A stretch of 63,981 bases of DNA, taken from NCBI GenBank assembly GCA_003152995.1, contig PMBR01000117.1, forward strand, positions 1-63,981, written 5' to 3'. The notes beneath the pieces are model-generated. The model searched no databases and was not told where the DNA came from. It was given only the letters and a program-made list of their open reading frames with translations. The position numbers and the translations under genes were made by a program. The DNA is from Chloroflexota bacterium. Its GTDB lineage: Bacteria; Chloroflexota; Limnocylindria; Limnocylindrales; CSP1-4. Each line of letters starts with the position of its first letter. Position 1 is the stretch's first letter. Positions 10,785-48,727 of this stretch are shown piece after piece.

Positions 10785-10940
10785 TCAGCGAGGGCACCAA
10801 AATAGCCTAGTCCTGGCGACCTCTGACCAGATTCCGGGCGGTGGGAGAGTCGTCGTCGCCACCATTTGGTCATAGCGTTGCTATCCGAGCGCACCTGAGT
10901 GAGGTATGTGGGTGACCACTCCGCACCCGAGGCGCCCACG

Positions 10941-11876
10941 ATGACCGCTCAACCGCTCCCCGCACTGACCAGCGGAGACCCATCTGCCTGGGACCAGGCC
11001 CTCTACGCCTTCTTGATCGAGAAGGGCAACCGGTCGGGCTCGAAACGCACCGTCGAGTCCTACAGCCGGATGCTCTGGCCGTTCTTCGCCGACCTCGGCA
11101 AGACGCCTGATCGAGTCAAGCCGGCCGACGTCCTGGCCTGGGTGCACGGCATCGGCAAGTCGGGCCGGACCCCTTCGGCAACCACGGTCGGCGCCAGGAT
11201 CGCGTGCCTCTCCTCCCTGTACCGCTTCTTGATCCGGATGGGTCTGGTTGTCTCGAACCCCTGCGACGCCGTCGAACGGCCCAGGGCGGTCCAGTCGGTC
11301 GCTCGGGGTTACAGCGCCGATGAGGTACGTCGGCTCCTTGCCGTCGTCCCCGACACCATTGCCGGCCGGCGCGACCGGGCCATCCTGCTCACCCTCGTCT
11401 TGACCGGGAGACGGCGGGCGGAGGTGATCGGCCTGCGCGCAGGCGACCTGAGTCTGGAGGGGGAGACCACCTTCTACGCCTACCGAGGCAAAGGGGGCAA
11501 GCGAGGACGACGAGAACTCCCCCACCCCGCTTACGAGGCCATCTGCGCAACGCTCGCCGACGCCGGCAAGGAGCTGGCGACCATGGCTCCTGCCGAGTCG
11601 CTCTGGCAAGCGGCTGCTCGGCCGGAGGGAGTCACAAGCGGCACGTTCTACGCCCGCTTCAGACGCTACCTCGCGGCGGCTGGCATGGCCCCGACTGGCA
11701 TCCATGTCCTGCGGCACACCGCTGCCAAGCTGCGACGCGATGCTGGCGAGTCGATCGAGTCGGTCAGCCAGTTCTTGGACCACAGTTCGCTCGCGGTCAC
11801 GAGCGTCTACCTCCGCCGACTCGAGGGTCAGGAGGACCTGACCTGGCGCGAAGTAGCGCAGGCGATCGGGGTCTAG
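10941..11876 (+). CDS. Tyrosine recombinase/integrase (XerC/D-like), copy A
   Basis: TGRRRAEV, HVLRHTAAKL and LAVTSVYL supply the R, H-x-x-R and Y catalytic elements. About 92% aa identity by hand count to 45883..46818. Start ATG 10941 chosen because homology between the copies and the shared MTAQPLPAL begin there. Confidence 0.9.
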   Translation: MTAQPLPALTSGDPSAWDQALYAFLIEKGNRSGSKRTVESYSRMLWPFFADLGKTPDRVKPADVLAWVHGIGKSGRTPSATTVGARIACLSSLYRFLIRMGLVVSNPCDAVERPRAVQSVARGYSADEVRRLLAVVPDTIAGRRDRAILLTLVLTGRRRAEVIGLRAGDLSLEGETTFYAYRGKGGKRGRRELPHPAYEAICATLADAGKELATMAPAESLWQAAARPEGVTSGTFYARFRRYLAAAGMAPTGIHVLRHTAAKLRRDAGESIESVSQFLDHSSLAVTSVYLRRLEGQEDLTWREVAQAIGV

Positions 11877-11898: not shown

Positions 11899-12693
11899 CT
11901 AGAAGAACGGTTCGAACCTGGGAAGCACGTTTCGAGTGACTGCGCTATAGAGGTGGTTGACTACGTCCTCGAGGGGCCAAGCAGACGCCCAAAGCGGCCA
12001 GTCCTCTGCGAACCCCCGAGGGGGCTGCGCCAGCGTTACCTGGATCGCGAAGCGTGCCTGAAGTCCAGATATTGCTGAGTCGATTGGGAGCCAAATCTCA
12101 GCGTCATTCCTGGTGGTGGGAACGGCAAAGCCAGGCTCCGAGGTATCGCCGTCCGGTCGGTTGTAGGTCGCGGAGTCTGGCATCACGAACGAGTAGCCAA
12201 ACAAGATCGTCCGATGTTTCGCCACATTCCAGAGCGTTTCGAGAGTGGCAAGGGCGCGATAAGTGCTCCAGTCGTCCCCATCCTCGCGTCGACTCTCATA
12301 TGGCTGCAACTCTTCGATGATCCGATTGGCGTCGTCGGGAACGGAATCGAGTTTCCTCTTGCTGAGAGCCGTGAAGCCGCCAGATCCATCGGATTGGCGA
12401 CAAATAGGGAAGGCTGAGCCTCTCGAGGGCCCGTCGGGTCGCATCTCGCCGACCAGATAATCGAGGCTTGATCGAAGGTTGTCGATGAAGTCTCCTACGG
12501 TGAGGGCCACGTCGGATGGCACGGGCTCGGGATCATGGGCTCGCCAGATACGGCATTGGACACCATTCCGCTCGCCGATGCCTTCGGTCACCAAGAAGGG
12601 TCTTCGAAGGCGGTACGTGTCCAACTGACGCAGGAGCGATTCACGATGGCGGTTTGCCCATTGGATCTTGAGCACCAATGCTTGAGGGGTCAC
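11899..12693 (-). CDS. Hypothetical cargo protein (264 aa) in the variable slot of module A
   Basis: Start GTG 12693 (or TTG 12696) preceded by GGAGG. The upstream part of the 415-aa track ORF runs through the non-coding repeat. No confident family assignment. Confidence 0.55.
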   Translation of the reverse strand: MTPQALVLKIQWANRHRESLLRQLDTYRLRRPFLVTEGIGERNGVQCRIWRAHDPEPVPSDVALTVGDFIDNLRSSLDYLVGEMRPDGPSRGSAFPICRQSDGSGGFTALSKRKLDSVPDDANRIIEELQPYESRREDGDDWSTYRALATLETLWNVAKHRTILFGYSFVMPDSATYNRPDGDTSEPGFAVPTTRNDAEIWLPIDSAISGLQARFAIQVTLAQPPRGFAEDWPLWASAWPLEDVVNHLYSAVTRNVLPRFEPFF

Positions 12694-12875
12694 CAACCTA
12701 CCCTCCGTCTTGGGGAAACCGCGAGGGTCCGTCGGGCCCCGCTGCCCATCCAGACTACGCCGGCCGGTCTGCAGTTTCCTGTCCGGTGGGCGCGAGTCGG
12801 GGTGCAAGATGGTTGGCAACCATCCCGCGGGAGCAGATAAGCCGCAGCTAAGCGGCGCCTGATACGGTCGCTCCG

Positions 12876-12957
12876 GGTCGGGCTCCGCTCTGTGACCGGG
12901 CCGATGCCGGACGACGGTGAGCGAGCCAGCGAGGCGGCTGCCCCAGGCGTCCCGACC
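12876..12957. repeat. 82-bp conserved repeat, copy 1 (homology to copy 3 extends back to about 12824)
   Basis: ggtcggg...cccgacc termini form a 7-bp inverted repeat. Nearly identical to 47849..47930 except for a cluster of 4 substitutions at about 12937-12945. Confidence 0.85.
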
Positions 12958-12973
12958 CAACCGGCCGGCGTCT

Positions 12974-13189
12974 CTACCGATTGGTATCGCGCAGTCGCCG
13001 GCGAAGCTCGTCGCCGTCCTTGTCGCCGACACTGAGTCTCGGGTCAGGAAAGTACGGGCCCGCAATGACGGTTGCGCCACAGACTGGACAGCGGAACTTC
13101 GGACTGCCACGCAGGTGGCCGGTCTTGCGCACGAACCGATGCCCACTCGGGCAGATCAGCTCCAACTGCTGATCGTCAAAAGGCGCCAA
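12974..13189 (-). CDS. Small zinc-ribbon protein (about 71 aa)
   Basis: TTG at 13189 lies 7 nt after GAGGA. Motif CPSGH...CPVCG. The longer track ORF runs through repeat copy 2. Confidence 0.45.
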   Translation of the reverse strand: MAPFDDQQLELICPSGHRFVRKTGHLRGSPKFRCPVCGATVIAGPYFPDPRLSVGDKDGDELRRRLRDTNR

Positions 13190-13270
13190 ATGCTGATCCT
13201 CTAACGCGGCGCTTGGGTCAGATGAGCCGTCGCGCGAATCTAAGTCCTGGGCAGAAAGCCTATCCGCCCG

Positions 13271-13352
13271 CGTCGAGCTCCGCTCTGGCGCCGGGCCGAT
13301 GCCGGACGACGGTGAGCGAGCCAGCGAGGGTGATGCCGCAGGCGTCCCGACC
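13271..13352. repeat. 82-bp conserved repeat, copy 2 (5' arm degenerate)
   Basis: Matches copies 1 and 3 over 'ctccgctct...gccgggccgatgccggacgacggtgagcgagccagcgagggtgatgccgcaggcgtcccgacc'. Confidence 0.85.
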
Positions 13353-13408
13353 CGTCGGTCCCACAGGGCGGCAGGATCGGACGTGGGCGGTGGTTGCACC
13401 CGCGCGGA

Positions 13409-14329
13409 TCAGGTCGACGAGCCGCCACTCGCAGCGTCTTCGACCCGCAGTCGCCTGCGACGCGCATCCTGGCGCTCCGCGTTCTTCACCTTGCGACAGT
13501 TGGAACACCAGACTGCGTCCGATCTGCGGCGATGTCCGCCGGGGCTACGGTCTGGGAGAAGAGCCCCGCATCTGCGACATGCCGACGGCCGTCCGGAGGT
13601 CGTCATGGCAGAGCGAGCTTGGAGTTGGGCGATTAGCTGAGCGTACGCGTAGCCCAAGAGCGTCAGGCAGCGCACCTCGGGCATTGGTTGAGCCGGAGAC
13701 CAATCTCGCTGATGTATAGGCTTGGCAAGCCAGTCCTCCATCGGAACCCGCAAAGACCAGGTCTCCTCCACGGTGAGGGAGACCCATTCGAGGATCTGCC
13801 ACTCGCCGGTCTCCATGTCGCGCGGCGAGGGCGATGGTCGTCCCGGCTTGAGGTTGAGACCATTGCGGCCCACGTCTAGCGGTCGAAGGTCGGCTAGGGA
13901 GCTCTGCAGCGCGGCTGCCGCCTGGCGTCGAACCGAGTCAAACCGCTCCAGCGTCGAAGCCTTAGAACCTCTGGCTTGAGCCCGTGCCCCAGCCAGCCCG
14001 ACTCGCGCCAAATCCCGCAGGAGCCCAAGGACCAGCGCCTCTGATCGGATCGCGTCGACGATCTCAGCTTTGGGCGTGCCGGACGAAGTCGAGTAGAGCC
14101 CAGTGAAGCGATTAGCGAACCGCTCAACGGCCTGATCGTCGGCATTTGCCAGGTCAACAAGCCGATCGAGCAGCTCCGGGTCACCTTGAAACGGCGGCTC
14201 GTGGAGTCGGCCGTCGGCCACCAGGCAGATGTCGCCGTCAAGTTCAGCCAACCGCCAGCGCCAGCGCTCCAGGAACACTCGGAAGGGGAAACCGAACCAG
14301 TCTGGTAGAAGTGTGTGCGGATCCGTCAC
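13409..14329 (-). CDS. Hypothetical protein with C-terminal zinc ribbon (306 aa)
   Basis: GTG start. C-terminus CRRCGALLP...WCSNCRKV. No family recognised. Confidence 0.55.
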   Translation of the reverse strand: MTDPHTLLPDWFGFPFRVFLERWRWRLAELDGDICLVADGRLHEPPFQGDPELLDRLVDLANADDQAVERFANRFTGLYSTSSGTPKAEIVDAIRSEALVLGLLRDLARVGLAGARAQARGSKASTLERFDSVRRQAAAALQSSLADLRPLDVGRNGLNLKPGRPSPSPRDMETGEWQILEWVSLTVEETWSLRVPMEDWLAKPIHQRDWSPAQPMPEVRCLTLLGYAYAQLIAQLQARSAMTTSGRPSACRRCGALLPDRSPGGHRRRSDAVWCSNCRKVKNAERQDARRRRLRVEDAASGGSST

Positions 14330-24793: not shown

Positions 24794-25168
24794 TCAAATG
24801 AAAGAGAACCACGAGTCGCCTGGTCCCGCGCCTGCCAGAAGCGTCGGACCAATATGAGCGATCCAGCGTTCATACATCAAGTCCTCGGGTTCGGGAGCCG
24901 TTTCGAAGACGAGGCCCGAGTCCCACAGCAGACGCAGGTTGAACAGGTCACCGACGACCTCCAGCCCGGTCAACCTGGCTCCTTCGAGTACTCGGATATC
25001 TTCTGTCGACACCCCACTGCCGGAGACCAGCCGCCAGGAAGTCTGCACCCGAATCGACTGATGCTCGCCAAATCGCAAGAATGGATAGCCGTGCAGAATC
25101 TCGGCGGATTGGCAGGCCATGCCAACCAAACTCGACTGCAACTCGGCTACAACGCGCGCATCCATCAC
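24794..25168 (-). CDS. Candidate immunity protein for the orphan HINT toxin
   Basis: ATGA overlap with the stop of 25165..25920. 124 aa with no signal peptide. Confidence 0.55.
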   Translation of the reverse strand: MMDARVVAELQSSLVGMACQSAEILHGYPFLRFGEHQSIRVQTSWRLVSGSGVSTEDIRVLEGARLTGLEVVGDLFNLRLLWDSGLVFETAPEPEDLMYERWIAHIGPTLLAGAGPGDSWFSFI

Positions 25169-25920
25169 GGAGACAGCTCCAGGTGCGATAGGTCACGATC
25201 AATCTTGCCGCTGAGATTCGCGCCGGTGACGCCCAAAGGCTGCTCCGCGGCGTTCTGCACGATGAGCCGAGGGCCTTGGGGGCCTGAGCTCGCAGCTCCA
25301 TCCATGATCCGCCACGTGTTGCCGGTCGCGGGATCGGTGAAGATCACGCCCGCTTCCTTGCCGAGGGAAGGGACGCTCGGCCAGCCAGCTCTCTGCAGAT
25401 CAGAGATCAGTTGCGACCTCGACGTAGGCACGGCAGCGCCGGTCTTGCCGGCGACGAAGTCGCACAACGGGTTGAAGTTGTGCACGAGCACCGCGCCCGA
25501 GCCGACGAAGAAGGAGTGGGCGCCGTCGACGGTCAGGTCCCACATAGTAGAGGGAGTGGCCGAGACGGTGAAGCTCACGACCGTGGCGGGCTTGCGCGAC
25601 TCGGTCCGGACCTGCTCGCCGATCGCGAGTGAGCCAGCCTCCACCCAGCCGCGATCGGTCGTGAAGAAGGGGTGGTTCGGAGTCGTCTCGATGGGGCCCG
25701 TGTCGGTCACCAGGTGCTCGACGACTGGATCGGTGTGGGCCATGACCGCCGTCACGGTGTGCGGACCGGTGACGCCGGTCCGCGGGTCGTAGGCCTCGAC
25801 CGTGTCCCCGACCCTGATCTCGGAGATGGCGGTCTTGCCGGTCGGGGTGGCGACGAGGGTGTCGGAGCTGACGCGATCACTGCACCGCAAGCTCGCACAG
25901 ATCATGTACGAGGCCGCCAC
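25165..25920 (-). CDS. Orphan polymorphic-toxin module: Hint (intein-like) domain plus a C-terminal toxin domain of about 105 aa
   Basis: DTLVATPTGKTAISEIRVGDTV...TPNHPFFT...GAVLVHN is a Hint/PT-HINT signature. No N-terminal delivery region is present. Confidence 0.7.
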   Translation of the reverse strand: MAASYMICASLRCSDRVSSDTLVATPTGKTAISEIRVGDTVEAYDPRTGVTGPHTVTAVMAHTDPVVEHLVTDTGPIETTPNHPFFTTDRGWVEAGSLAIGEQVRTESRKPATVVSFTVSATPSTMWDLTVDGAHSFFVGSGAVLVHNFNPLCDFVAGKTGAAVPTSRSQLISDLQRAGWPSVPSLGKEAGVIFTDPATGNTWRIMDGAASSGPQGPRLIVQNAAEQPLGVTGANLSGKIDRDLSHLELSP

Positions 25921-26023
25921 CGACCTCTACGACTTCCAGGCCCGCAAGCTACGACCCGAGCCTTTTCGGGCTGCGCCGTTTCCTCAGCGTGCGAGACCTG
26001 CGACCCGGTCCAGCTGCGGATAC

Positions 26024-26581
26024 CTACAGCTTCGGCGTTCGGCCCGTCTGGCCATCGGTCAGCAGCTTCATGATCGTGGTCTGCGACGGCCACGGCCCGC
26101 CGCACGATATCGTGACGCGTTTGCCGGCTCGGCCCGGGACGCTTACCAGCTCCACCACGGGGGGGCTGCCAGACCTGGTGATCGCTGCGAAACGGGATCG
26201 ACCAACCGTGAGGCGCGCTACCTCTGACCACTCGTAGGTCCTGGAGTGGGTCAGATAGCCGATCCGGAGGCCTTTGCCGCTGACCCACAGCTCGGTCGGC
26301 ATGAAGACGAGCCGGCCGATGCGCCGCAGGAGATCCAGACAGAAGAGCACAGCCATGGGGATCGTGAAGAACGGGAAGTGCGCGAGCCTGTCTCCTGCAG
26401 ACTCCGGCGGCGGGGCCGGCGGCCCAAGCGAGATGCTCACCAGGTATAGGCATCCGATCAGGATCGCCGCGTCGAATGCCACCCAGGCCTGACGATTGCG
26501 AAGGACGGACACAGCAAGACACTCGCCGAGCTGTGGATCGGATCGGATGACGGCCCGGTAGTGGGGTCTGTATGTCGCCAT
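26024..26581 (-). CDS. Two-TM membrane protein with PH-like C-terminal domain; candidate RHS immunity protein
   Basis: ATG 26581 lies 4 nt after AGGAGG and immediately downstream of the RHS stop. TM helices AAILIGCLYLVSISL and FFTIPMAVLFCLDLL. Confidence 0.6.
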   Translation of the reverse strand: MATYRPHYRAVIRSDPQLGECLAVSVLRNRQAWVAFDAAILIGCLYLVSISLGPPAPPPESAGDRLAHFPFFTIPMAVLFCLDLLRRIGRLVFMPTELWVSGKGLRIGYLTHSRTYEWSEVARLTVGRSRFAAITRSGSPPVVELVSVPGRAGKRVTISCGGPWPSQTTIMKLLTDGQTGRTPKL

Positions 26582-26624
26582 TCGGCCTCCTAGCCCCAGG
26601 GATTGCCCTGGCGAAGTATGGTCC

Positions 26625-29600
26625 TCATGGATTGCCTGAGTCACGCACTGATAGGAGTCTGATGGCCTCGTAGTAGTCGTCTAGTTTCGGACAGTCGGAA
26701 TCGAAATTGCAGGCTACGGAATCCCAGGTAGAGCCGACCACGTTCGAAGTGACGACGCCCGCGATGACAGCCCCACCCCCGCAGATCAGAGCCTCCCCCG
26801 GGCCGGTAGCAAGCCCCAGTACGCATGCAGTTCCCACGAGGGCCCCGACCTTCAATCCCGCGTAGTCCTTCACCGCCGTCTTGGCCGACTGGTTTGCGCA
26901 ATTCAACTCGTCGCTCCAATCGCAGGTGGCCATGGTCAGGCCGGTGTCCGCCAGCAGTGCCGCAGCCCCGGCCTTGTCACTTATGCCCTCCAAAGCCGCT
27001 CCATTGCCTCCGGTGAACTGCTGTCTGACCATGCCTATCGCTGCGGAACGTGCGCTGGCTTCGGTCCAACCCCCACCCCTTGCCATGAAGCCTTCGAATA
27101 GCTTCTTGAATCTCGCCAGCCATAGCGCGTCCTTCGCGATGTCTGCCGGTACTTGGATATTGCCAACCGCCGTCGAGACGATCTCAGGAGGACCGTCGCT
27201 CGAGGAGTCACCAGCGATCTCTCCCCGCACGACCTTCTTCCATCGCCTGAGACACTCATCAAGATCCGAACCAGTGCTCAGGCACATGGTTAGGAACTGC
27301 CGGTGGGTATCGTTGAGCGTCGGCACAGTAGGGGTGCAGTCGTGATACTGGCATCCGCCATCGGTGACGGGTGGCACTGTCGGTGCCGGGGCCCCTCCCG
27401 TGGCCGGCGACTTGGGGCTGTTGCCGGTGTCCTTGCCTGTGCCCGTTTCCCAGCAGGAAGCATCCGTCACGATGTACTCACATATGCCCGTATGGCCATC
27501 CGGATCGATCAGCGTCGCCGGGTTGGCATCGCCGTAGAGATAGCGGTTCATGGAGATCGGGTTCTGGGCGGAGCCGCCGACGGAGTCGAACTGCGTGAAG
27601 GTGCCAAGGCCTGGGGAGTAGAAGCGGGCGCCGGCGTCGTAGAGGTCGGCGGCACCGGTTGCGGATACGAGCATGCGGCCCTGGTAGCGCCAGGGGGTCG
27701 GCAGGGAGGATGTGGTCGCGGCGATGAGGCGGCCGTAGGCGTCGTAGCGGAAGGCGTCGGTGATCGTGCCGAAGTTCCAGGTCGCCGCGGCGGCGACGTT
27801 GCCGTGGAGATCGGGTACGAGGAAGCTCAGGGTGTTGGAGCCGCCCACCTTTGTGGCGAGACGGCTGCCATCGGAGCCCAAGAGGGCGACGGTGGTGCTG
27901 TTCGAACCGCCGCTCGTGGCGATCTGGCAGACGGTCTCGCTCGTGCCGAGGTAGCTGTAGGTGTCGGTGGTGGCGGTCGGACTCGTCGCGGTGGTGCGGG
28001 TCGCGGTCCGGCCGAGAGGATCGAGGGTGAAGGTCGAGCTCGCGGTCGGGTTGGGAGCGGTGATGCCGAGCAGCCGATCGGCGATGTCGTACGTATAGGT
28101 GGTGGTCGAGCCACCGGCCACAGGTTCCGCGTCAGCGATCATGTTGCCGCCGGAGTCGTAGGCGAAGTAGTGGGTCGTGCCCGATACGGTCTGGCTCAAG
28201 AGCTGATCGGCGGCGTCATAGACGTAGGTCGTAGGCGAGCCGTCGGTCATGGACGTCCGGTTGGAGTCGCGATCGTACGTGTAGCTGATGCTGCGGGAGC
28301 CCAGGACATCGCTCACCACGCGCGCGAGGCCATCGTAAGTGAAGCTCGCGGTGTTGTTGCCCGAGTCGCCGGTGATGCCAGCGAACGTGCGGCCCTCGCT
28401 CTTGACGTTGCCGTCGCGATCGTAGGTCTGCGAGAGCGAGACGCTCGCTACCCCTGTGCCGCTGATCGCGAGGCCGACCGGACGCTTGGCGGCGTCGTAG
28501 GTGTAGGTGAACAGGGCATTGCTGCCGGTCCAGGTGCGTGACCCCAGGAGCCCATCGAGTCGATACGACCAGCGCGGTGTGAGGCTCGTCAGGCTCGTCT
28601 CGGACACGCTCGCCGGCCGCCCGGCGAAGTCGTAGCCGAACGTGGCCGTGCCGGTAGGATCGGTCCGGGTCCCAGCCGTGCCATCGGCGTTGTAGGTGTA
28701 GCTCGTGAGGACGCCGCCCGAACCGTCGCTGATCTCGATGGGTCGATCGAGCAGGTCGGGGCTGAAGTTGATGGTGAGGGTGGTCGTGCCTTCGACCGGT
28801 GAGGCGTATCTGCCGTCGAAGACCAGACGGGTCCTATAGCCGTCACCCTGGTATGTGCTGGTCCATGAGAGCGGTGAGGTGCCCGAGCCCGGAGCACCCT
28901 GGTAGGTCTTGACCAGCGTCGCTCGGCCGACCGCGTCATATGTCGTGGCGGTGTAGCGCGTGGCATTGGCACAGGTGCTAGCCCAGCTCGGGATCGTGCA
29001 GACCTGCGTGAGCCGGTTGCCCGCGTCGTATACCCAGGCGTTCGATGAGAGCTGGACGCCGCCCAGAGCGGTGACACCGGTTGGCAGAGGAGTCACGGTC
29101 GGTGGCTTCTGGTAGATGAGATGGCCGGCGGCGTCATAGGAGTAGTGCCAGGCGGTGGTCGCAGAACCCGAGGTCGGGTCGCACAAGGTGCCCGCGTCGC
29201 CGCGGTTCTGGGCGCTGCAGTAGCCGGTCATCTCGCCGAGGGCGTCATAGGCGTAGGTCGAGCTGACGTCGCGATCGGGGTTAGCGCTGCTCCACACGCC
29301 ATCGACGTAGTTGGAGGTGGTGGCGGTCACGCGGCCAAGGCGGTCGTAGACATAGTGGCTGTTGATGCCGGTCGGATCGACTAGATCGGTCTTGCGGCCC
29401 AGGGCGTCGTAGACGTTGGCGGTGACAAGGTTGGAGTCGGGCGCGGTTTCGCGCCCGGCGGCGAAGTGGCTCGACATCGTGCCGCCCGAGAGGGCGGCGT
29501 TGTAGAGGGCGACTTCGTCGATCGAGCCTGGGAAGAAGCCCGAGCCCGAAGCCGAGCTCGCGATCGTATTGGTCTTCGCGCCGCCGGTTGGCGTATACGA

Positions 29601-32600
29601 GCCGAAGCTGCCGGTTCCGGCCGCCGCCCCGTTGACGTAGTAGGTCACCGTTCCGCCAGCGGCGCTGAAGGTGGCGCCGACATGGGTCCACGTGTTGGTC
29701 GGGATGGTCACGTTGGCCGAGCCGGCGTTGGCGACGCCCGTGATCCGGGCCGCCAGATACAGATTGCCGCTCGAGCCCGTCAGAATCAGGCCGTAGCTGC
29801 CGGTGGCTCCGGCGACGATGGACTTGTAGCCGTCCGCGGAGCTCGCCGGGTTTACCCAAGCCTCGATGGTCCAGTCTCCGGTCGTGAGATCGCAACCGGC
29901 GAAGCCGACGTTGCCGCTTGCGCCATCGAAGGACGCCGCGGTCCGGGCCTCGTCAATGGCGCCGGCCACCCCGAGGGCGACCCCGCCGGTGTACGTGCCG
30001 TCATTGGATCCCTTCTTGTCTTCGGCAGCCGTGCCACCGCGCTCGTCGAGCGGCCAGTAGTCGAGGAGACTCGCCGTGTTGATGATGCTCGTGCTGTAAG
30101 CGTCGGTGGCATCGACCGAAGTCGCGACCAGGCGGCCGTCGGGGTCATATGCCGAGGCCGTGACCATCGGCTCATCGACCCCGGGCACACCCGGCGGGGT
30201 GACGTTCTCGATCGGATGGCTATCGGCGTCGTAGATCGTCTCCGAGGTGGGGATGTTCGATTGGGTCGTGACCGTGGCGGTCGCGTCCCAGACCACGACG
30301 TCGTCGAGATAGAAGTTGATCCAGCCCGAGGCGTCCTTGCGCACCGCGAAGTGGACGTTGCTGGCCCGATCGGCAGACGGCGTCCAGGTGCAGTCGATTG
30401 TCTGCCAGTGGCCGTTGGTGGAGAGCGAGCCGCAACTGTGGTAGTCGCCGCCTGATGCATCGACGCCGAAGAAAGAGGTGAGGGTGTAGCCACTCCAGCC
30501 GTCGATGTCGGCATGGATCTTGTAGGTGTGGCCGGCCAGGAAGGTCTGGCCGCCGTCCTGGGCCGAGAGGTCGACCCAGGCACCGCTATACGAGCCACTG
30601 GTGCTCGTCGCGACGCGGAGACGGCCGCGGCCATTGTCTGGCGCGGTCGTCTGGTAGGCAGAGCCGGCCGTGTCCTGATCGGACGATATCGCGCCGGCGG
30701 GAGCGCCGATGAAATAGCCACTCCCGCTACCGGTCCAGCCGTCGACGCCGCCCTCGAAGCTAAAGAGGCTCATGCCTGCGGCGCCGCTGCGATCCCAGTT
30801 GGCCAGCGTCGAGTAGGCGCGCCCGGCGGCGTCGTAGAGGGTCGCTGTCCAGGTCACGTCGTCGTCGCCCTGCGTGGACGAACCGGGCTGGCTCGTGGCG
30901 GCCGTCCGCCCGCCGGGCGTGTAGTCGGTCCGCGTCCAGGAGTTGTCTGGGCGGACCACCGCTGTGGCGCGGCCGAGGGCGTCGCGCTTGGTGGACGTAG
31001 TGTGGCCCAGGACATCGACGACACCCACGAGGTTGCCGTTGAGATCGAACTGGTTGTCGCTGCTTATGTCGCGGTCGGGGTGGCTCGGATCGTATGTGCC
31101 GGTGCTGTAGTTACCGACCGTCCGGACCTCGTGACCGTCGAGATCGAAGACGTGCTGGCTTGGGGTGCCGTAGGCGTCGTAGGTCATGGTCGGGCGGCCG
31201 GCCATGTCGAGCACGCTCACGCTATTGCAGTAGAGCGTCGTCGAACCAGGGCAGAGCCGGCCGCCGGTCGGCGCGATCGGGCCACGCGAGCCCGACGGCT
31301 TGGGCCGTGCAATCGAGCCGCTCACATCGAAGTAGGCGGTCGTTGTCCGTGAGTTCGTGTGAGCGGAATCCGAGTAGACGACGCTCTGGATGACGTTACC
31401 CAGGAGGTCGTACCCGCTCGTGGTCTCGGCATTGATCAGCCCGCTGCCGCCGTCGGAGATGACCGAGGCCTGGTTTCCCAGGTTGTCATAGGTGTAGTTC
31501 GTGGTGAGGTTGGCGGTGCCGCTCGTGCCCCCTCCGGAGACGGAGTTGGCGACCGAGCTCACGAGCAGGCCGTGGGTATACGTGCTCGTGTTCTGGATGC
31601 CGTTCGGGTCGGTCACGCTCACGGCATGGCCCGCGAGGTCGTAGGCCGTCGTGGTCATCTCGCCGAGCGGGCTCGTGACCGAGGTCCGGCGGCCGGCCGG
31701 GTCGTAGGCGTAGGTCGTGACGTTACCGACGCCATCGGCGGTGCTGGCCACGTCGGTCATATTGGTGGCGTAGGTTGTGGTGGCGCCGACGCCGTCGGGG
31801 TCGGTGGTCGAGATCGTCCGGCCCCAGGCGTCGTAGGTGGCGCTCGAGATCACGTCCTCGTCGGGCTTGGTCGGATCGAAGGAGCCGTTGACGTAGTTGG
31901 CCGTTCGCGAAGTGGGCAAGATGGCGGGCGTGACCGAGGAGGCGCCATACGCCAGGCGCGTATCGATCCCTCCTGTAGTGCCCGGTGTCTCCTGGTTCAG
32001 GACGAACGTGTCGGTCGGAAGCCCGGCCGGGGTCGCGCCGGTGCCATCCGCGTATGTCGTGCGCGAGTACATAGTCAGCAGATCGACGTCGTCGACGTAT
32101 CCGGTGCCGGCCGACGCGTCATTCCAGAACGAGACGCGGATACGTCCGTCGCCGCTGACCGGGACCCGAGTGTCGATCGCGTACTGGGTCCAACCGCCCG
32201 GCGCCTTGCTGGCGGTGGCCATTGCCGGAGTTTCCCAGGTCGAACCAGCGGCATCCTCGATCTTGTAGGAGACGTGTCCGCCTGAGACGCCATGCGCCCA
32301 GAACTGGAGCCGCATCGCCTGGCCGGGCACGAGGCGAACGGTCTGGGTTGCCGGGCCCGCGGCGCCGTTGGCGGCGAGCTTGAGCGACGCGGTGCCGCTG
32401 TGGACGCTGGCATCGGGCAGGCTCGTAGCCTGATAGATCGTGGCGCTGCTGCCCAGGGTCCAGCCCGCGTTGTTGCCGCCGGTGCCGTACTCGAATCCCT
32501 CGTTGGCAAGGTACGTGTCGTCGGTGACCGAGGTCGGATTGCCCGAGTCGTCGTAGAGCGTCTGGACGTCGTTGAGGACGGTCGCGGCGCCCTCGGCCCA

Positions 32601-35600
32601 GTGGGCCTCGATTGCCCCGGGGCTCAAGACGCCAGCGTAGACCGCCACTTCGTCGATTGAGCCTGCCCAATGAGCGCTCGCGTTGCCATCCTGGCCAATC
32701 CGCAGGGCGTGGCTCCCATCGGCGAGGAGCGCGGTGCCGACATAGACGCCCGAGCCGATCTGGATGCCATTGACGTAGATCTCGAAGTTGCCGCCGCCGA
32801 CGGTCTCCACGATGTGATACCAGGCTCCGGGGGCGTACTCGAATTCGGCGTCCGCGGCGGAGTTGAGCCATGCGCCCCCAGTCCCGATGGCGCTGTGGAT
32901 CTCGATCGGGTTGGTCGCGGTCGCAGGCGCTAGCTCGAGGGCGAAGCCATACGAGCCGCTCCCCACGATGGCCTGCTTGGCGGTTGCACTCGTGGTCTTG
33001 ACCCAAGCCTCGACCGTGAAGCTGCCTGAGAGCGCGAGGCCGGAGTTGATCGCAATCGAACCCGAGCTGCCGTTGAAGCTCATGGCCTTGTTGGCATCAC
33101 CCACGAGGGCACCAGGCTGCGCGAGGCTTACGCCGCTGCTGCTGATGGTGCCGGCGTGGTTGCCCGAGCTGGAGTCGGCCGCGGTCGAGCCGCTGGGCTC
33201 ACCAAGGCGCCAGTAGCCGGCGAGGTTCGGCCCGGCCGCCACGACCGTGGAATAGACGGGCTCCGGACTCGTATATGGGGTAATCGTGTCGACCACTTCG
33301 TGGAGCGCGTTGTACGTGTAGGTGGTCCGATACAGTCCCGGATTGCCTGCGGCGACCGAGGCGTAGTACTGGTCGGCGCTCTGGCTCCACAGCGTCTCGG
33401 CGCCGGTCAGCGGATCGGCCAGGTTGTCGACCGCGAGCGCGGCGTTCGTGCCGCGGCGGCTCACGACCTGATTGCCTCCGCCGGTGCTCGTGCAGCCGGC
33501 GGTCTGACAGCGGGTTTCGGTGCTGTAGTGGCCGACGCCATCGAAGGCGTAGCTCGCCATCAGATCGCCAGCGTCGACCGCTGGGGTGCACGCACTCGAG
33601 CTGCACGTCAGCGGCTGGTATTCGTTGAGAGTCGTCCCATCGGGGCTCAGGTCGATGTACAGAGCCTTGGAAGCTGCCAACGCGGGGCCGTTCTGCCAGA
33701 GCACGCGCCTGTAGGTATCCGAGCTCGCGGAGTAGGTGTCCACGACGAGCATGTCCTCGTCGGGACTCGCGGACACATCGGTGATCTTGGTCGGGCGATT
33801 GGTCCCGTCGTACGTGACCATCGTGTAGAAGTTGTTGCCGCTCGATCCCGTGTCGCGAGGGTCGCGGATCTTCCAGAGCAAATTGGAGCCTGTGTATTCG
33901 AACTTGAGACATCCCGATGCGGTGCCAACGGCCGCGCACCCCGTGCCGACGTGTTGCGCCGGGATGACGGTCATGAGGTTGCTGCTGGTCAGATCGAATT
34001 CGGTGGCGCGACCGCTGTGGCTCGTCGTCGAGCCGAGTTCTTCGGTGAATGTCACCTTGCCGCTGGCGTAGGCCACGGCGATGTCGCGCTGCGCCGTGCC
34101 GCTCGAAAGCGCCATGCCATCGGAGGGGGCGTGGATCTTGGTCAGGGTGTAGGCGGCCTGGCCCGACTTGGAGGTGTCGTACGTCCAGTCGAAGGTCGTG
34201 GTCTGGCCGTTGCGATCGACGATGCGCTCCAGGAGGCCATCGAGATTGAAGTAGTGCTGGCTGCCGTCGGCGCCGGTGGCGACGAAGTCCTCGGATCCAG
34301 GGGCGATAAGCGGATCGGCACCGGTCTGGCTTGTGAGGTAGTCGTCGTCGAACAGGGCGTACTGACCGTCATACGCGATGAGCTCGTAACCGGTCAGCTG
34401 CACGTCATCGGGGATAGGGCCATTCGAGGGCGCGGCCCCGGGCGAGCTCGAACCAGGATTGTCGTTGTAGAAGCCGAGAACCTGGCGGGCGTCGTCTTCG
34501 AGATCGCGCGTGACCGGAGTCCAACTCACCGGCAGCGAATCGGAGATCTTGATCGGGTTCGCATAGCCCTTGTTCTCGCCGGCGTAGTAGGTGATGGTTT
34601 GGCTGATGTTGGTGCGAACGTCCTTGATCGTGAAGGCTTGGGCGATCGTTGTCCCGCCGACCTTGCGCCAGTACCAGCGGGCGAACGGGTAGACGTACAG
34701 CGGCGTTGTGAGGCCGCTCACCGTCGGACTGGCCGACAGAGGCGTGATGGCAGTCACCTGGAGCGAGTCCGCGCCGATGGCCTTGTCCGAGCTGTTCAAG
34801 CTTGCGTAGCTGCCACTACCGCCGACAAAGGTGGGCAGGCTGTCGTCGAAAGCGACGCTGCTGCCGGGCTCGAGGGCGGCCCCGTCGAACCAGAGGCTTC
34901 CACCCGACACGTAGCCCGTGATCTCGACCGCAAGCACCAGATACGAGTCGTGGTCGGTAGCAGCGCCAAAGAGGCTCTTGTTGGCGTTGACGTCGTTCCA
35001 GACGTTGCGCTCGTACGGCGTCCAGGATGTGGATATGCCACCGATGTCGGTCTGCCAGTCCATGCCAGCGATCGACCAGGACGCCCCGAAGTTGTAACCG
35101 AACCAATTCTGCGTCGAGGTATTGGTGTCGTAGATGTCGAGCGCGATGCCGGCCTTGTTGTATGTGAGCGAGCTTGTCTTGGCGCTGAAGTCCAGCAGCG
35201 GGTATGAATTGAGGGGAACCTGGGGCGTGATGGCGGCGCTCGTCGTGGAGCGGCTGTCGATCTTGGTCGAGAAGGCGCCCGACGATGCGGTCAAGTGGTC
35301 GTACGTCGGCGGCGAGCTCCAGGCGAGCTTGTTGTCGTCGAACAACGTCCAGCGCGTGCGCGCCAGGGCCGAGGGTGCGCTCGAGATCAACTGGCCGTTG
35401 CCGTCGGCGCCCACGAAATAGCTGTTGCCCGACGGGTCCTGGTATGTGTAGGTGCCCGGCGCGGTCGTGCTGACGTTGAGCCGTTCATCGAAGTTGGTCG
35501 ACCAGCCGCATGCTCCCAGGATCTCGGCGCAACTGGAGATCGCGCCCGAGTCGTACTGGTATGACAGGTTCACAGGGTCGAGGTCGTTGAAGCCCACACC

Positions 35601-41920: not shown

Positions 41921-43033
41921 CTACTCCGGGGTCACCGTCCAAGCGCCGTCGGCATTGATCACCAGGAGCATCATCCCCGGCGGCAGCTGAATCTCGCCAC
42001 TGAACTTGCCAATCTCGTTCACCAGCAGGTCTCGGCCGCTGTCGCTGTAACTCCAGACGGCGAAGTTCGAGGAACCTGAGTGCGTGATAGTCGCCGTCGT
42101 GAGCCCGACTATCGGCTCCTGGAGCAGGACAACATCGTCGCCGCGGCCAGTCAACTTGGACACGCCGTCCCACAACCTCGCCGCCTGAATGGGCTTCACT
42201 GTGATGGTCCAAGAACCGCTCGACTCAACCTTGAACGCGACGGAATGCTCGCCCGAACCCGTATCGAAGATCACGGTTCCTGAGTAGTTGCCGATCACGT
42301 TCACCAGGAGGTCGAGTGTCGAGCCATCGGCCCCTATCGACCAGACCACGAAATTGGCGCTGCCACGATTGGCGATCGTGGCAGTCCCGGGCACGTCTTC
42401 CGGGATCGTGAACTTCGGCACCTTGTTGCCCCGCCCCGAGAGCTTGATGGGATTGAAGTCGAGGACGGGCGTCGGTACGGCCGTCGGCGACGGAGCCGGT
42501 GTCGGGGTCGGCATAGCCGTCGGCGACTGGGTAGGCCCGGTGGTCGGCGTCGGTACGGCCGTCGGCGACTGGGTAGGCCCGGTGGTCGGCGTCGGTACGG
42601 CCGTCGGCGACGGCGTGGGTGTCAGGGTCGGCGTCGGTACGGCTGTTGGTGACTGGGTAGGCCCGGTGGTCGGCGTCGGTGCAGTCGCATCGGTTGCTGT
42701 TGGATTCGGAGTCGGGCTCGCGGTCCCCATTGCCACCAGCGCGGTTGGAGTGGCCCCCGCGCTCTTCGGCTTCTGCTCCGTCGCGCCCGCAAACACGATG
42801 GCAGCTACCCACACGGCAGCGAGAGCGATGGACGCCCCAATGCGCAGCCGCCGGTCCTCTCGGACTCGGGCCAGTTTTCCGAGGACCCAGTAGCCTGCAT
42901 CGAACACTAGCGGCCCGTACAGCGCCGCGAACGTAGCGCAGACGAACAGGGCTGCCAGCGCCACTTTCAAGCCGACAGATGCGGACCGCCACTTCGGCTC
43001 GAACCATCGCCAGAACCTGCCACTGATTGGCAT
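41921..43033 (-). CDS. Membrane-anchored protein with a PT-repeat linker and two beta-rich domains
   Basis: N-terminal TM helices, then 14-aa [14 protein letters not shown] repeats, then duplicated [18 protein letters not shown] modules. Confidence 0.6.
42471..42690. repeat. 42-bp tandem repeat array (two perfect copies at 42517..42600, flanked by degenerate units)
   Basis: 'ccgtcggcgactgggtaggcccggtggtcggcgtcggtacgg' occurs twice back to back. Confidence 0.85.
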
Positions 43034-45659: not shown

Positions 45660-45882
45660 TGAGACCTCCTGAGAACGCGTGCCTGAAGCTCGTTGTCGCC
45701 AAGGGCGGACGCCCCTCCAGGGTGGGGTTCCGCCGGGCGAAGAGGCAGAGTCGATTGGCCCTCAGCCGGCCCGCTTCGTCAGGGCCTACTGGTCCGGCTG
45801 CCACGATGCCGCGATAGCGTTGCTTTCTCCGGCCAGCTGAGTGACTCATGTGGGCGACCACCTTGTACCCGAGGCGCCCACG

Positions 45883-46818
45883 ATGACCGCTCAACCACTC
45901 CCGGCCCTGACCAGCGGAGACCCCTCCGCCTGGGACCAGGCCCTCTACGCCTTCTTGATAGAGAAGGGCAACCGCTCGGGATCGAAGCGGACGGTCGAGT
46001 CATACAGCCGGATGCTCTGGCCCTTCTTCGCCGAGCGCAGCTTGACGCCTGATCGAGTCAAGCCTGGCGAGGTCCTCGCCTGGGTCCATGGCATCGGCCG
46101 CTCCGGTCGGACACCGTCCTCAACCACGGTCGGTGCGCGGATCGCGTGCCTGTCCTCCTTCTACCGCTTCCTGATCAGGATGGGCCTGGTCGTCAGCAAC
46201 CCCTGCGACGCCGTCGAGCGACCCAGAGCCATTCAGTCCGTTGCCCGGGGATACAGCGCCGACGAGGTGCGACGGCTCCTTGCGGTGGTCCCCGACACCA
46301 TCGCCGGGCGGCGAGACCGAGCCATCCTCCTCACACTCGTTCTGACGGGACGGCGTCGGACCGAGGTGATCAGCCTGAAGGCCGGCGACCTCAGCATCGA
46401 AGGCGAGACGGTCTTCTATGCCTACCGAGGCAAGGGCGGTAAGAGAGGTCGGCGGGAACTCCCTCGCCCGGCCTACGAGGCGATATGCGCGACGCTTGCC
46501 GATGCCGGCAAGGAGCTGGCCTCGATGACTCCGGCCGAGTCGCTCTGGCAAGCCGCCGCACGAGTGGAGGGAGTCACGAGCGGCACGTTCTACGCCAGGT
46601 TCCGCCGATATCTGCAGCTTGCCGGCATGGCCCCGACCGGCATACACGTCTTGCGGCATACGGCGGCAAAGCTGCGGCGAGATGCCGGGGAGTCGATCGA
46701 GTCAGTCAGCCAGTTCTTGGACCACAGTTCGCTCGCGGTCACGAGCGTCTACCTGCGCCGACTGGAGGGTCAGGAGGACCTGACGTGGCGCGAGGTTGCG
46801 GAGGCAATCGGGGTCTGA
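45883..46818 (+). CDS. Tyrosine recombinase/integrase, copy B
   Basis: Same catalytic motifs as copy A. DNA homology to copy A spans about 45813..46818. Confidence 0.9.
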   Translation: MTAQPLPALTSGDPSAWDQALYAFLIEKGNRSGSKRTVESYSRMLWPFFAERSLTPDRVKPGEVLAWVHGIGRSGRTPSSTTVGARIACLSSFYRFLIRMGLVVSNPCDAVERPRAIQSVARGYSADEVRRLLAVVPDTIAGRRDRAILLTLVLTGRRRTEVISLKAGDLSIEGETVFYAYRGKGGKRGRRELPRPAYEAICATLADAGKELASMTPAESLWQAAARVEGVTSGTFYARFRRYLQLAGMAPTGIHVLRHTAAKLRRDAGESIESVSQFLDHSSLAVTSVYLRRLEGQEDLTWREVAEAIGV

Positions 46819-46890: not shown

Positions 46891-47691
46891 TCACAGGCGT
46901 GCCCACCGCTCCGAGACTCCACCGATGATCTGCGGGGGTATGCCGAGTGCTGCGACGAAGTTCGGCTCGGGCACGATGGGCACTCCGTAGTCTCGCGCCT
47001 TCTGCAGAGTGGTCGTCACTTCGTTCGAATCGGCGACGATCAAGACCTGCGTCTTCTTGGTAAGCCGTGGGAGCACTTCGCAACCGGCCCATCGAGCGAG
47101 CATGACCTGAGCGTTTCGGTCGAGTGGCGCGCCGTAGAGAGTGGTCGAGCCCTGTCCGCTAAAGACGACGGACTTTCCGCCCCAAGTCGAGTCCGCTGGT
47201 GTCCGATTGTCGGTCGCCAGCTCCACGATGCACTCGCCCGGCGTCCCTAGGTGAAGAACGACACCCACGCCTCCACGTTCAGACTGGAGCGCGGCATCAC
47301 ATGCCACCGCGGGCGGAGTAGCCCCTGATGTCGCCGCAAGCCAGCGAAAGACCGGTTGATAGCTTGCCGCGTCGGTCCGAGACAGGTAGCCCGCCAACGA
47401 CCAGGTGCCGCCCGCCCACAGGACCACAGCAATCGCGTTGCGGTCGTACTGGTTGGCGGGCTCAGCAACGAGCAGTGCCTTGTAGTAGCCCGGCGGCGGC
47501 CCGGGCATCCCAGGCGGGAGATCGTTTGGCCCGGGCGGCCGCGCAAGCCTCACCGACGCTTGTCGGTAGTACTCGCCGACGACCGGCAGCATCGCGTCGT
47601 CGCGCAAACGGGTGAAACACGTCACGTTGAGGCGGGCGGAGTTAACTCCGCTACCACCGAGAAAGCGCCGTAGGAAACTCATGCCTCGCAC
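46891..47691 (-). CDS. HIRAN-domain / BRCT-domain protein (variable-slot cargo of module B)
   Basis: HIRAN-like VVGEYYRQ...LLVAEPANQYDRNAIAVV...GYLSR. C-terminal BRCT-like GKSVVFSG...TKKTQVLIVAD...KARDYGVPIV. Confidence 0.7.
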   Translation of the reverse strand: MRGMSFLRRFLGGSGVNSARLNVTCFTRLRDDAMLPVVGEYYRQASVRLARPPGPNDLPPGMPGPPPGYYKALLVAEPANQYDRNAIAVVLWAGGTWSLAGYLSRTDAASYQPVFRWLAATSGATPPAVACDAALQSERGGVGVVLHLGTPGECIVELATDNRTPADSTWGGKSVVFSGQGSTTLYGAPLDRNAQVMLARWAGCEVLPRLTKKTQVLIVADSNEVTTTLQKARDYGVPIVPEPNFVAALGIPPQIIGGVSERWARL

Positions 47692-47848
47692 CCTCTAGCA
47701 CCGTGAGCACCCTCAATAACCTACGCGCTTTTGGTCAGTGACGGACGACGAGTACGCACGGACTGACCCGTAGCCCCGGCGAAGAGCCCGCGGTCCGAGG
47801 GAGCGCCAGATAAGCGCCCGATAAGCGGCGACTGCTAGGGTCGGCTCG

Positions 47849-47930
47849 GGTCGGGCTCCGCTCTGTGACCGGGCCGATGCCGGACGACGGTGAGCGAGCC
47901 AGCGAGGGTGATGCCGCAGGCGTCCCGACC
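47849..47930. repeat. 82-bp conserved repeat, copy 3 (homology to copy 1 extends back to about 47800)
   Basis: Same orientation as copies 1 and 2. Lies 158 to 239 nt upstream of the HIRAN-BRCT start codon on the minus strand. Confidence 0.85.
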
Positions 47931-47935
47931 TAGCC

Positions 47936-48727
47936 TTGCCGCGCGACCCCACGGGACGTGGGCCGGGGCGAGACAATGCAGCCGTGACAGGGTCGAGAGA
48001 TCGCGATAGCCATGGAAGCGCTCGCGGGCCGCAGGACCAGCGCCGGCTCCATGACTGGCTGGCGTGGGACGAGTCGGTCAGGCGAGGGCGACGCATTCTC
48101 TCCTTCGATCCGGACTGGACGCCCCGACCAGGCGGCCCTCAGTCCCCCGAGTACATCCGCTGGCGACAGGCCGTCGAACTTCGTCGCCTGCTCGCGGAGG
48201 CCAACCGCGCCCTGATCGAGCTGCACCTGCCGGCCCTGTTCCGCGACTACTGGATCGCCTGCTTCCTAGCGCCCTACGAGCGCGATGGTCTCGAGGTCAT
48301 CTGCGATCCGCAGCCAACCGGGGACGTGACCACCGAGCGCGTCTACCCGCCGCCCTCGGAGTCGTGGTTCGACGCGGGCATCGACTACTCCACCGCTCCG
48401 GCCACACTGCTGATAGAGGGACCAGCCGCGCTCGCGAGCAGCCTCGTCCTTCGTGCCGCGGTTCGTCGGGCGCTGGAGAGCAAGCGACGGTCGGGCTTTG
48501 CGGCCCAGCACCCGCTCATGCGGACGCGGCAGATCGGAGCCGTGGCCGAGGATCGCACCGCCGCGAGGGGCCGGCCGAACCCTGCCAAGGAGGTCGCCAT
48601 CCGCCGTGCGCGAGCATGGGCAGCAGGCGGAGAGAAGCCCGAGTTCATTGCGCTTCGCCTCACCGAGCGCGGGTATCAAGTGTCCGCGCGAACCGTGCGG
48701 CGGTGGCTGGACGTGCCGCCAGAATAG
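47936..48727 (+). CDS. Hypothetical protein with C-terminal resolvase-type HTH
   Basis: PEFIALRLTERGYQVSARTVRRWL. The N-terminal limit is uncertain. Confidence 0.5.
   Translation: MPRDPTGRGPGRDNAAVTGSRDRDSHGSARGPQDQRRLHDWLAWDESVRRGRRILSFDPDWTPRPGGPQSPEYIRWRQAVELRRLLAEANRALIELHLPALFRDYWIACFLAPYERDGLEVICDPQPTGDVTTERVYPPPSESWFDAGIDYSTAPATLLIEGPAALASSLVLRAAVRRALESKRRSGFAAQHPLMRTRQIGAVAEDRTAARGRPNPAKEVAIRRARAWAAGGEKPEFIALRLTERGYQVSARTVRRWLDVPPE

Follow-up and report, generated by a model that had tools for sequence, protein, structure and literature searches.

An 82-bp conserved element beside a Xer-like tyrosine recombinase gene in Limnocylindrales (Chloroflexota): a candidate recombination site at a cargo hotspot

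The stretch of DNA analyzed here, referred to throughout as the window, is the 63,981-nucleotide (nt) contig PMBR01000117.1 of a Chloroflexota bacterium from the order Limnocylindrales (assembly GCA_003152995.1), with a G+C content of 65.7%. It holds two paralogous modules that lie approximately 34.9 kb apart and share one order: a 325-amino-acid (aa) tyrosine recombinase (Yint, plus strand), an unrelated cargo gene (minus strand), an 82-bp element (E), approximately 1.1 kb of unrelated DNA, and a large serine recombinase (Sint, plus strand). An earlier reading of the DNA letters, made without database searches (the sequence-only reading), had reported three copies of E and listed as candidates a leader RNA, a promoter-operator, and a recombination site for the adjacent integrase. 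Here, we analyze E, the arm that precedes it, and their association with Yint. The features concerned are as follows.

10860..10883, plus strand: left edge of Yint1, the palindrome CACCAT-TTGGTC-ATAGCG followed by TTGCTA (-35-box-like); information content climbs from 0 exactly here across 70 distinct left flanks
10899..11876, plus strand: Yint1, a Xer-like "simple" tyrosine recombinase (325-aa open reading frame [ORF]; Pfam Phage_integrase, 1.8e-17, plus a SAM-like N-terminal domain)
12834..12874, plus strand: arm of E copy 1, with GATAAG at 12836-12841 (-39), GCTAAG at 12847-12852 (-28), and TACGGT at 12863-12868 (-12)
12875..12958, plus strand: E copy 1 (E1), full length, with arm
13270..13353, plus strand: E copy 2 (E2), a distal copy with its first 20 nt diverged and its arm lost via an approximately 55-nt deletion relative to comparison locus L026
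45802..45825, plus strand: left edge of Yint2, CACGAT-GCCGCG-ATAGCG followed by TTGCTT
45841..46818, plus strand: Yint2, a paralog of Yint1 (DNA 83.6% identical)
47807..47847, plus strand: arm of E copy 3, with GATAAG at 47809-47814 and 47820-47825 and TGCTAGGGT at 47833-47841
47848..47931, plus strand: E copy 3 (E3), full length, with arm

All three copies described earlier were found again in the same orientation (plus strand; 12875/6-12957, 13270/1-13352, and 47848/9-47930). They share an identical 39-mer, CCGGGCCGATGCCGGACGACGGTGAGCGAGCCAGCGAGG, for which the chance expectation was 0.00 even with three mismatches allowed (100 dinucleotide-preserving shuffles), and blastn comparison of the copies within the window gave expect values of 1e-30 to 2e-40. 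Copies 1 and 3 indeed share approximately 50 bp of additional 5' homology (12825-12875 versus 47795-47848) and differ in a 9-nt patch with four substitutions (GGCGGCTGCCCC versus GGGTGATGCCGC); both retain two proximal GATAAG-type repeats plus TANNNT. The 7-bp terminal inverted repeat proposed for the element, GGTCGGG...CCCGACC, is perfect in these two copies, but copy 2 begins with GCGTCGAG and matches at only 5/7 positions. The gaps from E to the starts of the minus-strand ORFs had been given exactly (183 to 264 nt to 12693, 82 to 163 nt to 13189, and 158 to 239 nt to 47691). That each copy lies 5' of a minus-strand gene is true in the window but not across the family, where the adjoining cargo or right-flank genes occur on either strand.

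Relatives of E were collected by a search with the Yint protein (78 loci) and by two degenerate pattern scans, and all loci were then screened by nhmmer. The scans used exact patterns from the center of E, and diverged or 3'-only copies may be missed; the metagenome-assembled genomes (MAGs) in the comparison may be population composites. Contrary to the possibility, raised in the sequence-only reading, that no further homologs exist, we obtained 169 nhmmer matches (105 distinct sequences), all from Limnocylindrales-type MAGs and peat, fen, or lake metagenomes. The exact 39-mer is present in five Chloroflexota MAGs. One metagenome contig (L218) corresponds to window positions 12833-14155 at 98.7% DNA identity, and another (L250) encodes window proteins at 100%. 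Over its 82 bp, E shows a mean column identity of 90% (73 distinct sequences), and its flanks are unalignable. A 22-mer of E had no exact match in viral contigs, and blastn of the Yint1-E2 region retrieved nothing from the PLSDB plasmids. In all databases queried, and to our knowledge, E and the Yint-arm-E module are undescribed.

E is closely linked to Yint. A Yint stop codon lies within 3 kb upstream on the same strand in 68/70 copies having at least 3 kb of upstream sequence, with a modal distance of 145 to 190 bp; this count derives from the pattern scans on the center of E and is independent of Yint. Viewed from the recombinase, E is found downstream of 39/48 distinct Yint genes at ≥83% identity. 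The linkage to the serine recombinase is weaker, as a homolog occurs within 3 kb downstream of E in only 39/94 testable cases (41%). Loci without cargo ("empty" loci) display a fixed order of Yint stop codon, GC-rich hairpin (with arms that vary between loci), approximately 30 nt, CAGTCTAG, GATAAG repeats, TGCTAGGGT, and E. In arm-bearing copies (n = 83), the GATAAG repeats start at -50, -39, and -28, an 11-nt phase, and TANNNT is located at -12 or -13 in 68 of them.

The boundaries of this unit are sharp. At the 3' edge of E, the 87 distinct right flanks show a fall in information content from approximately 1.5 bits to approximately 0 within 2 to 3 nt past CCCGACC(C). Counted from ...GGCGTCCCGACC, position +1 is C in 73/87 flanks, positions +2 and +3 are weakly biased, and further positions are unconserved. 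The left edge is equally sharp across 70 distinct left flanks and consists of an 18-bp palindrome, CAC(C/G)AT-N6-AT(A/G/C)G(C/T)G, followed by TTGCT(A/T)T. This palindrome has two alleles that are distinguished by the spacer (TTGGTC or GCCGCG; window 10860-10877 and 45802-45819) and could function as an operator or as another recombination site. Yint, the terminator-like hairpin, the arm, and E therefore constitute a discrete module of approximately 1.25 kb in highly mosaic surroundings. The best NCBIfam matches of Yint1 are Xer models, its nearest PDB chain is XerD, and its true start is likely the ATG at 10941, which follows a GAGG at 10929-10932. Between Yint1 (11703-11876) and L218 (4-177), 22/174 nt differ, all of them synonymous (58/58 aa identical), a sign that purifying selection on the C-terminal catalytic region is very strong.

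Sharp edges across 70 left and 87 right flanks would also be expected if E were the end of a small unit resembling an insertion sequence (IS) or a miniature inverted-repeat transposable element (MITE), whether Yint plus E or E alone with a 7- to 8-bp terminal inverted repeat (GGGTCGGG...CCCGACCC). The unit is indeed present in several copies per MAG, and many contigs break at it. We nonetheless consider this explanation hardly probable. Its left end (a CACCAT-N6-ATGGTG palindrome) has no clear relation to the right end, and no plasmid match was found in PLSDB. The right flanks are themselves mobile-element genes; 41% show the same serine-recombinase context, which is kept even in a locus that lacks E (L044, Yint 76% identical). 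Finally, a MITE end, one of the identities named in the sequence-only reading, failed its test, as solitary E copies are essentially absent (2/70) and no target-site duplication was seen at the edges.

Comparison of loci further indicates that the two sides of E are reassorted. The right side of L218 is like the window (E1, the zinc-ribbon ORF, E2, and the 306-aa ORF; 98.7%), while its left side is of another lineage (Yint DNA, 87%) that has the hairpin, a CTAG motif, and GATAAG three times and lacks the 264-aa cargo gene. Other locus pairs have a common left flank but diverge right after CCCGACC, or have a common right flank and different left flanks. The 3' part of E is more alike when the right flank is common (0.928 versus a background of 0.876), while the 5' part plus arm, and not the 3' part (0.870), is more alike when the far-left flank is common (0.880 versus 0.857); these statistics involve only 13 and 105 pairs. 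In this small sample, the flank-linked similarity suggests that crossovers may occur inside E.

We found 15 distinct two-copy arrays, in each of which the Yint-proximal copy is full length with an arm and the distal copy lies 213 to 1,090 bp further right; no array longer than two copies was seen. The distal copies are nearly always arm-less, often start at model position 14 to 40, and extend to the 3' end or near it. Partial tRNAs in genomic islands display the same 3'-anchored pattern, and the two-copy pattern reads as a probable signature of integration into a site by DNA carrying a replacement 3' part. On a larger scale, E2 and E3 of the window (92% identity over 90 bp) are possible attL and attR sites of a 34.6-kb island.

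More distant relatives of Yint are accompanied by other repeats. Yint homologs in L059, L069, and L071 (65 to 77% identity) are followed by three GACAGC direct repeats and then by a partial tRNA 3' end where E would be; ARAGORN detected no full tRNA at this position in the three loci. Repeats plus a partial tRNA beside these genes correspond to the textbook integrase-attachment site (att) arrangement. In a palsa MAG (L043, 1104-8710; Yint 76% identity), the last ~165 bp of the Yint gene occur in five copies, which all end at the stop codon, have variable 5' ends, and are separated by 1.1 to 2.6 kb of unrelated cargo. In this locus, the integrase gene's own 3' end appears to serve as the att repeat. 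Shorter Yint 3'-end fragments are also found in E-type loci (L003, L018, L037, L039, L190, L229, and L252). In three MAGs (L020, at about 1936, L029, and L032), the stop codon of a Yint gene from the same clade (87 to 88% identity) abuts a convergent msrA stop codon and E is absent; this junction may represent a chromosomal or ancestral location of the recombinase. Given the L043 repeats, the Yint 3' fragments, and the msrA junctions, we regard the position directly past the Yint stop codon as a second junction or hotspot.

E itself is not a diverged Yint 3' end: local alignments between the two were at noise level, and a short GGCGTC/GGGGTC resemblance does not generalize. An 8-mer located 9 nt past E1 (window 12958-12976), CGGCGTCT, equals the last Yint codons of L026 (ATCGGCGTCTGA), and L218 and L242 contain it as well. 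This 8-mer is not general among right flanks and may be left over from a junction with the Yint 3' end.

The observed linkage, boundaries, reassortment, and repeat anatomy lead us to favor, among the candidates of the sequence-only reading, a recombination site of the adjacent tyrosine integrase that permits cargo exchange. The evidence is comparative (the 68/70 linkage, the sharp 3' edge, the reassorted flanks, the 3'-anchored distal copies, and the relatives next to partial tRNAs), and we treat the proposal as a reading of it. With confidence that we would place about midway, E plus its arm would be an att-like, cis-acting recombination site of Yint that makes a cargo hotspot, following integron-like logic without being an integron.

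A mechanism can be outlined on this basis. Integrative elements of Limnocylindrales would carry the module, and a genome would often have several copies. Yint would bind and cut E, and we infer that the strands are exchanged within the 3' half of E or right at the 3' edge (...GGCGTCCCGACC|C). Different DNA segments would be joined to the right side of E by such recombination. Small integrase-less segments, as circles with a partial E, would be inserted, each leaving a second, arm-less, and often 5'-truncated E, and a second variable slot would lie directly past the Yint stop codon. Yint consists of core-binding and catalytic domains alone, with no arm-binding domain, and the GATAAG repeats would therefore be bound by an accessory protein. 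In the window, E1 and E3 would be the arm-bearing sites of Yint1 and Yint2, E2 would be the distal copy bounding the zinc-ribbon segment, and the 264-aa and HIRAN-BRCT genes would be cargo in the post-stop slot.

Several points weigh against E acting as a site of Yint. No canonical core (two 9- to 13-bp inverted arms with a 6- to 8-bp spacer) was recognized in E, where the inverted repeats are 7 to 8 bp long and 66 bp apart, and 82 near-invariant bp is longer than most recombinase core sites. Since Yint is a "simple" recombinase, the phased GATAAG repeats need another binder or are a promoter/operator feature. No occupied/empty pair for the E-segment-E' arrays was present among the 268 loci, the flank-linkage statistics were built on few pairs, and the reassortment of flanks could be homologous recombination at a conserved patch.

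Homologous recombination would likewise account for reassortment if E and its arm served to bind a protein in some process besides recombination, for example at an iteron-type replication origin or a partition site. The direct repeats in helical phase and the conservation at the level of primary sequence would suit such a role, and GATAAG read on the other strand is CTTATC, like the start of a DnaA box. AAA_25 (RepA-like) and ParB-N6 methylase genes follow Sint1 in the window and likewise in L040, L014, and L038. However, E tracks Yint (68/70) far more closely than it tracks genes for replication or partition, which most loci lack. It is also GC-rich, with no AT-rich unwinding region, and 3'-anchored truncated copies and a sharp edge are unexpected for an origin. 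We thus regard an origin or partition site as very unlikely.

The leader RNA proposed in the sequence-only reading was assigned to the downstream minus-strand gene. This assignment is not borne out, as cargo occurs on either strand elsewhere (plus in L010 and L001; minus in L036 and L033) and, in empty loci, only the integrase terminator hairpin lies leftwards of E. Nor was a conserved fold or covariation detected. Single copies of E fold no better than shuffled sequences (z-scores of -1.3 to +0.8), and RNAalifold applied to the 73 distinct sequences gave a consensus of -7.38 kcal/mol with a covariation term of -0.13. The structure conservation index was 0.19 for the plus strand and 0.41 for the minus strand. 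In a hand-built five-helix model, 2/24 pairs change on both sides, and the covariation score was 0.085 versus a shuffled mean of 0.078. The original remark that compensatory changes are missing among three copies accordingly extends to 73 sequences. Because 90% mean identity leaves little variation, this missing covariation weakens an RNA reading without removing it. The element also proved to be noncoding, as had been proposed: plus-strand frames 1 and 2 hold stop codons, and substitutions show no 3-nt periodicity by inspection. A tRNA or tmRNA was rejected, as none is present in the window and E cannot be drawn as a cloverleaf. A known structured RNA was rejected as well; Rfam gave no match at the gathering threshold across the window, and positions 12700-13500 gave only noise (E = 4.6 and 9.3).

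The promoter-operator candidate fared differently. Its features are present (a conserved TGnTANNNT at -15 to -7 and 11-nt-phased GATAAG repeats), but the promoter would face rightwards, on the plus strand. In this form, the arm would serve as an outward promoter that depends on an activator, with TGnTANNNT as an extended -10 element and GATAAG repeats replacing the -35 element. E, at the end of the module that faces outward, would then be a leader or small RNA, driving or regulating the genes to the right. With TANNNT at -12/-13 in 68/83 arm-bearing copies, the predicted start is the first G of E, and the GATAAG repeats hold fixed positions (-50, -39, and -28). Plus-strand ORFs often begin 6 to 110 nt past E, including a 263-aa ORF (orf263p) at +6, and variation in the helix at 55-58/65-68 is mostly wobble pairing that fits the plus strand. 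The folding results given above (consensus energy without covariation, low structure conservation indices, few pairs changing on both sides, and single-copy z-scores around zero) nevertheless count against this proposal, as do the arm-less distal copies and the lack of an Rfam match. Rightwards of E, the first strong ORF was a plus-strand one in 53 cases and a minus-strand one in 35. A generic sigma-70 and terminator scan, which does not cover extended -10 promoters, found nothing at the arm or hairpin. While we consider an outward promoter with a leader or small RNA rather unlikely, a promoter and a recombination site are not mutually exclusive. The attI/Pc region of integrons combines both functions, with Pc driving the integron cassettes.

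Returning to the recombination-site reading, we note an extension of it that we advance tentatively and consider rather doubtful. Yint-arm-E might be an integron-like gene-capture platform that does not use IntI, in which a Xer-like recombinase and a site of approximately 135 bp, possibly with a promoter, would capture integrase-less cassettes with defense-like genes, toxin-antitoxin-like genes, or small ORFs. Fragments from the 3' end of E, or from that of the recombinase gene in the L043 sister lineage, would serve as the cassette sites, and the platform would be an independent invention in Chloroflexota.

The remaining genes of the two modules and their right-hand surroundings are listed below; ORF calls are crude in DNA of such high G+C content.

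11899..12693, minus strand: 264-aa cargo gene, function unassigned, in the hotspot bounded by the Yint1 stop codon and the E1 arm
12974..13189, minus strand: 71-aa zinc-ribbon ORF in the small segment between E1 and E2, with weak zinc-binding-domain matches
13409..14329, minus strand: 306-aa ORF (orf306) with a C-terminal CxxC...CxxC, in the variable region from E2 to the serine recombinase; 100% identical in L218
14554..16212, plus strand: Sint1, a large serine recombinase (Pfam Resolvase, Recombinase, and Zn_ribbon_recom)
46891..47691, minus strand: 266-aa HIRAN-BRCT cargo gene (weak Pfam HIRAN and BRCT matches), in the same hotspot as the 264-aa gene
47936..48727, plus strand: 263-aa ORF (orf263p) starting 6 nt past E3, with a G+C fraction at third codon positions of 0.79 and homologs in the same post-E position in L033, L173, and L208
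49024..50778, plus strand: Sint2, a large serine recombinase that abuts a truncated comM
50456-51715, minus strand: comM (Mg-chelatase/ChlI) without its C-terminal part; Sint2 ends inside or against it, and the junction is the right end of the whole mobile region

The 264-aa cargo protein has no match in Pfam, NCBIfam, or PADLOC, and the HIRAN-BRCT protein matches the PADLOC candidate defense family PDC-S48 (1.7e-10). Homologs of the zinc-ribbon ORF (77 to 81% identity) lie directly past the Yint stop codon in L013, L026, L169, and L201. Two further cargo arrangements were observed in other loci: a two-gene pair in L014 (7944-8774), in which one protein resembles an XRE-type helix-turn-helix regulator, and a two-ORF pair between E and E' in L017 (10104-10991). 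Together with the HIRAN-BRCT gene, these pairs make the hotspot cargo look defense-like or toxin-antitoxin-like.

To the right of comM, only housekeeping genes are present. The DNA to its left is of mobile type and includes methylases, a repeat protein of 3,920 aa with a pretoxin-HINT ORF after it, and AAA_25 and ParB-methylase genes together. Both E modules therefore lie inside mobile DNA inserted into comM by a serine integrase. More than 10 other loci have the same Sint-comM' junction (L007, L022, L024, L033, L036, L171, L239, L260, and others), and comM is thus the attB of this serine integrase family.

Several repeats were seen elsewhere in the window. A 150-bp tandem repeat with at least five copies (78 to 91% identity) occupies positions 1-781 and runs off the left end. 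The 3,920-aa protein is encoded by a single minus-strand ORF (within 25165-38387) with internal 18-nt and 102-nt repeats at 37258-37665, and the pretoxin-HINT ORF (25165-25920) is next to it; within the mobile region, these ORFs resemble a polymorphic-toxin or RHS-like locus. Finally, 42-nt tandem repeats (five to six copies, 42459-42710) lie inside the minus-strand ORF at 41921-43033.

If E is the site of Yint, the two would form a compact recombinase-plus-site module that is absent from every database searched. Such a module would shape the gene content of Limnocylindrales, an abundant uncultured lineage of peat and freshwater, and would mark a hotspot for swapping defense-like and toxin-antitoxin-like genes. 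Arm-less tyrosine recombinases with a long, well-defined, sequence-conserved site would be of practical interest as genome-engineering tools. The related integrases, with three types of repeat (a tRNA end, an unrelated 82-bp sequence, and the end of their own gene), would also form a natural series that allows direct tests of how att-site choice evolved.

Among known systems, integrons share with the Yint module a tyrosine recombinase gene beside a reserved site and short, mostly single-ORF, integrase-less segments that are each bounded by a copy of the site. A possible outward promoter at the site and accessory or defense-type cargo are further likenesses. Yint is not an integron integrase, a family with its own IntI-specific extra domain, however, as it scores 45.1 bits against TIGR02249 (cutoff of 265; residues 46 to 215 only) and 27 against PRK15417 (cutoff of 435), and its best matches are Xer models. 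E and the recombinase gene share a strand, with E downstream, whereas the integron site is upstream and divergent. Moreover, attC sites are imperfect palindromes with R''/R' boxes (RYYYAAC...GTTRRRY), in which structure rather than sequence is conserved. E starts with GGGTCGGG and ends in ...GTCCCGACC, contains no GTTRRRY/RYYYAAC boxes, and is conserved in sequence and not in structure; an attC identity was rejected. Unlike in integrons, E arrays so far have two copies (15 arrays, 0.2- to 1.1-kb spacing), and cargo is found on either strand.

Genomic islands at tRNA genes, including tycheposons, provide a second comparison. Tycheposons carry a Xer-related recombinase at the element end, undergo tandem accretion, and leave scattered 3'-anchored partial att copies; some elements have a large serine recombinase instead, and adaptive genes make up the cargo (Hackl et al., bioRxiv 10.1101/2020.12.28.424599). 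As in these islands, the integrase gene is at the element end with the att repeat 100 to 200 bp away (here, a modal 145 to 190 bp), and distant Yint homologs adjoin partial tRNAs. E differs in being neither a tRNA nor an Rfam RNA, and the DNA to its right is a mobile element rather than host sequence. One defining trait of a classical tRNA-type island is missing: a second att copy, within a full-length host target gene at the far end, would leave approximately half of the copies without an adjacent integrase, whereas only 2/70 copies from the pattern scans lack Yint.

Systems that use Xer at dif (IMEX, integrative mobile elements exploiting Xer, and pdif modules) were also rejected: inspection of the alignment revealed no dif-like core of approximately 28 bp (11-bp arms and a 6-bp spacer), the kind of site that the host XerC/D act on, in E, and the recombinase is element-borne and multicopy. 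In TnpI/IRS of Tn4430 and Cre/loxP of P1, one site lies beside the recombinase gene, consists of a core plus accessory direct repeats, and reassorts flanks by recombination between molecules. In layout, E resembles these resolution sites in lying beside the gene, in being usually single, and in having phased direct repeats. It differs in that no inverted-repeat core was recognized, and truncated direct second copies with cargo in between point to insertion, beyond resolution.

A parallel in domain content is offered by the "simple" tyrosine recombinases such as Brujita gp33 and XerT, which are arm-less and mobilize elements (Smyshlyaev et al. 2021, PMC8138268). Brujita Gp33 (PDB entry 5vfz) is among the few PDB matches of Yint, and Yint likewise consists of a core-binding and a catalytic domain only. 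The sites described for these integrases are short, whereas Yint is accompanied by a conserved 82-bp block and phased repeats.

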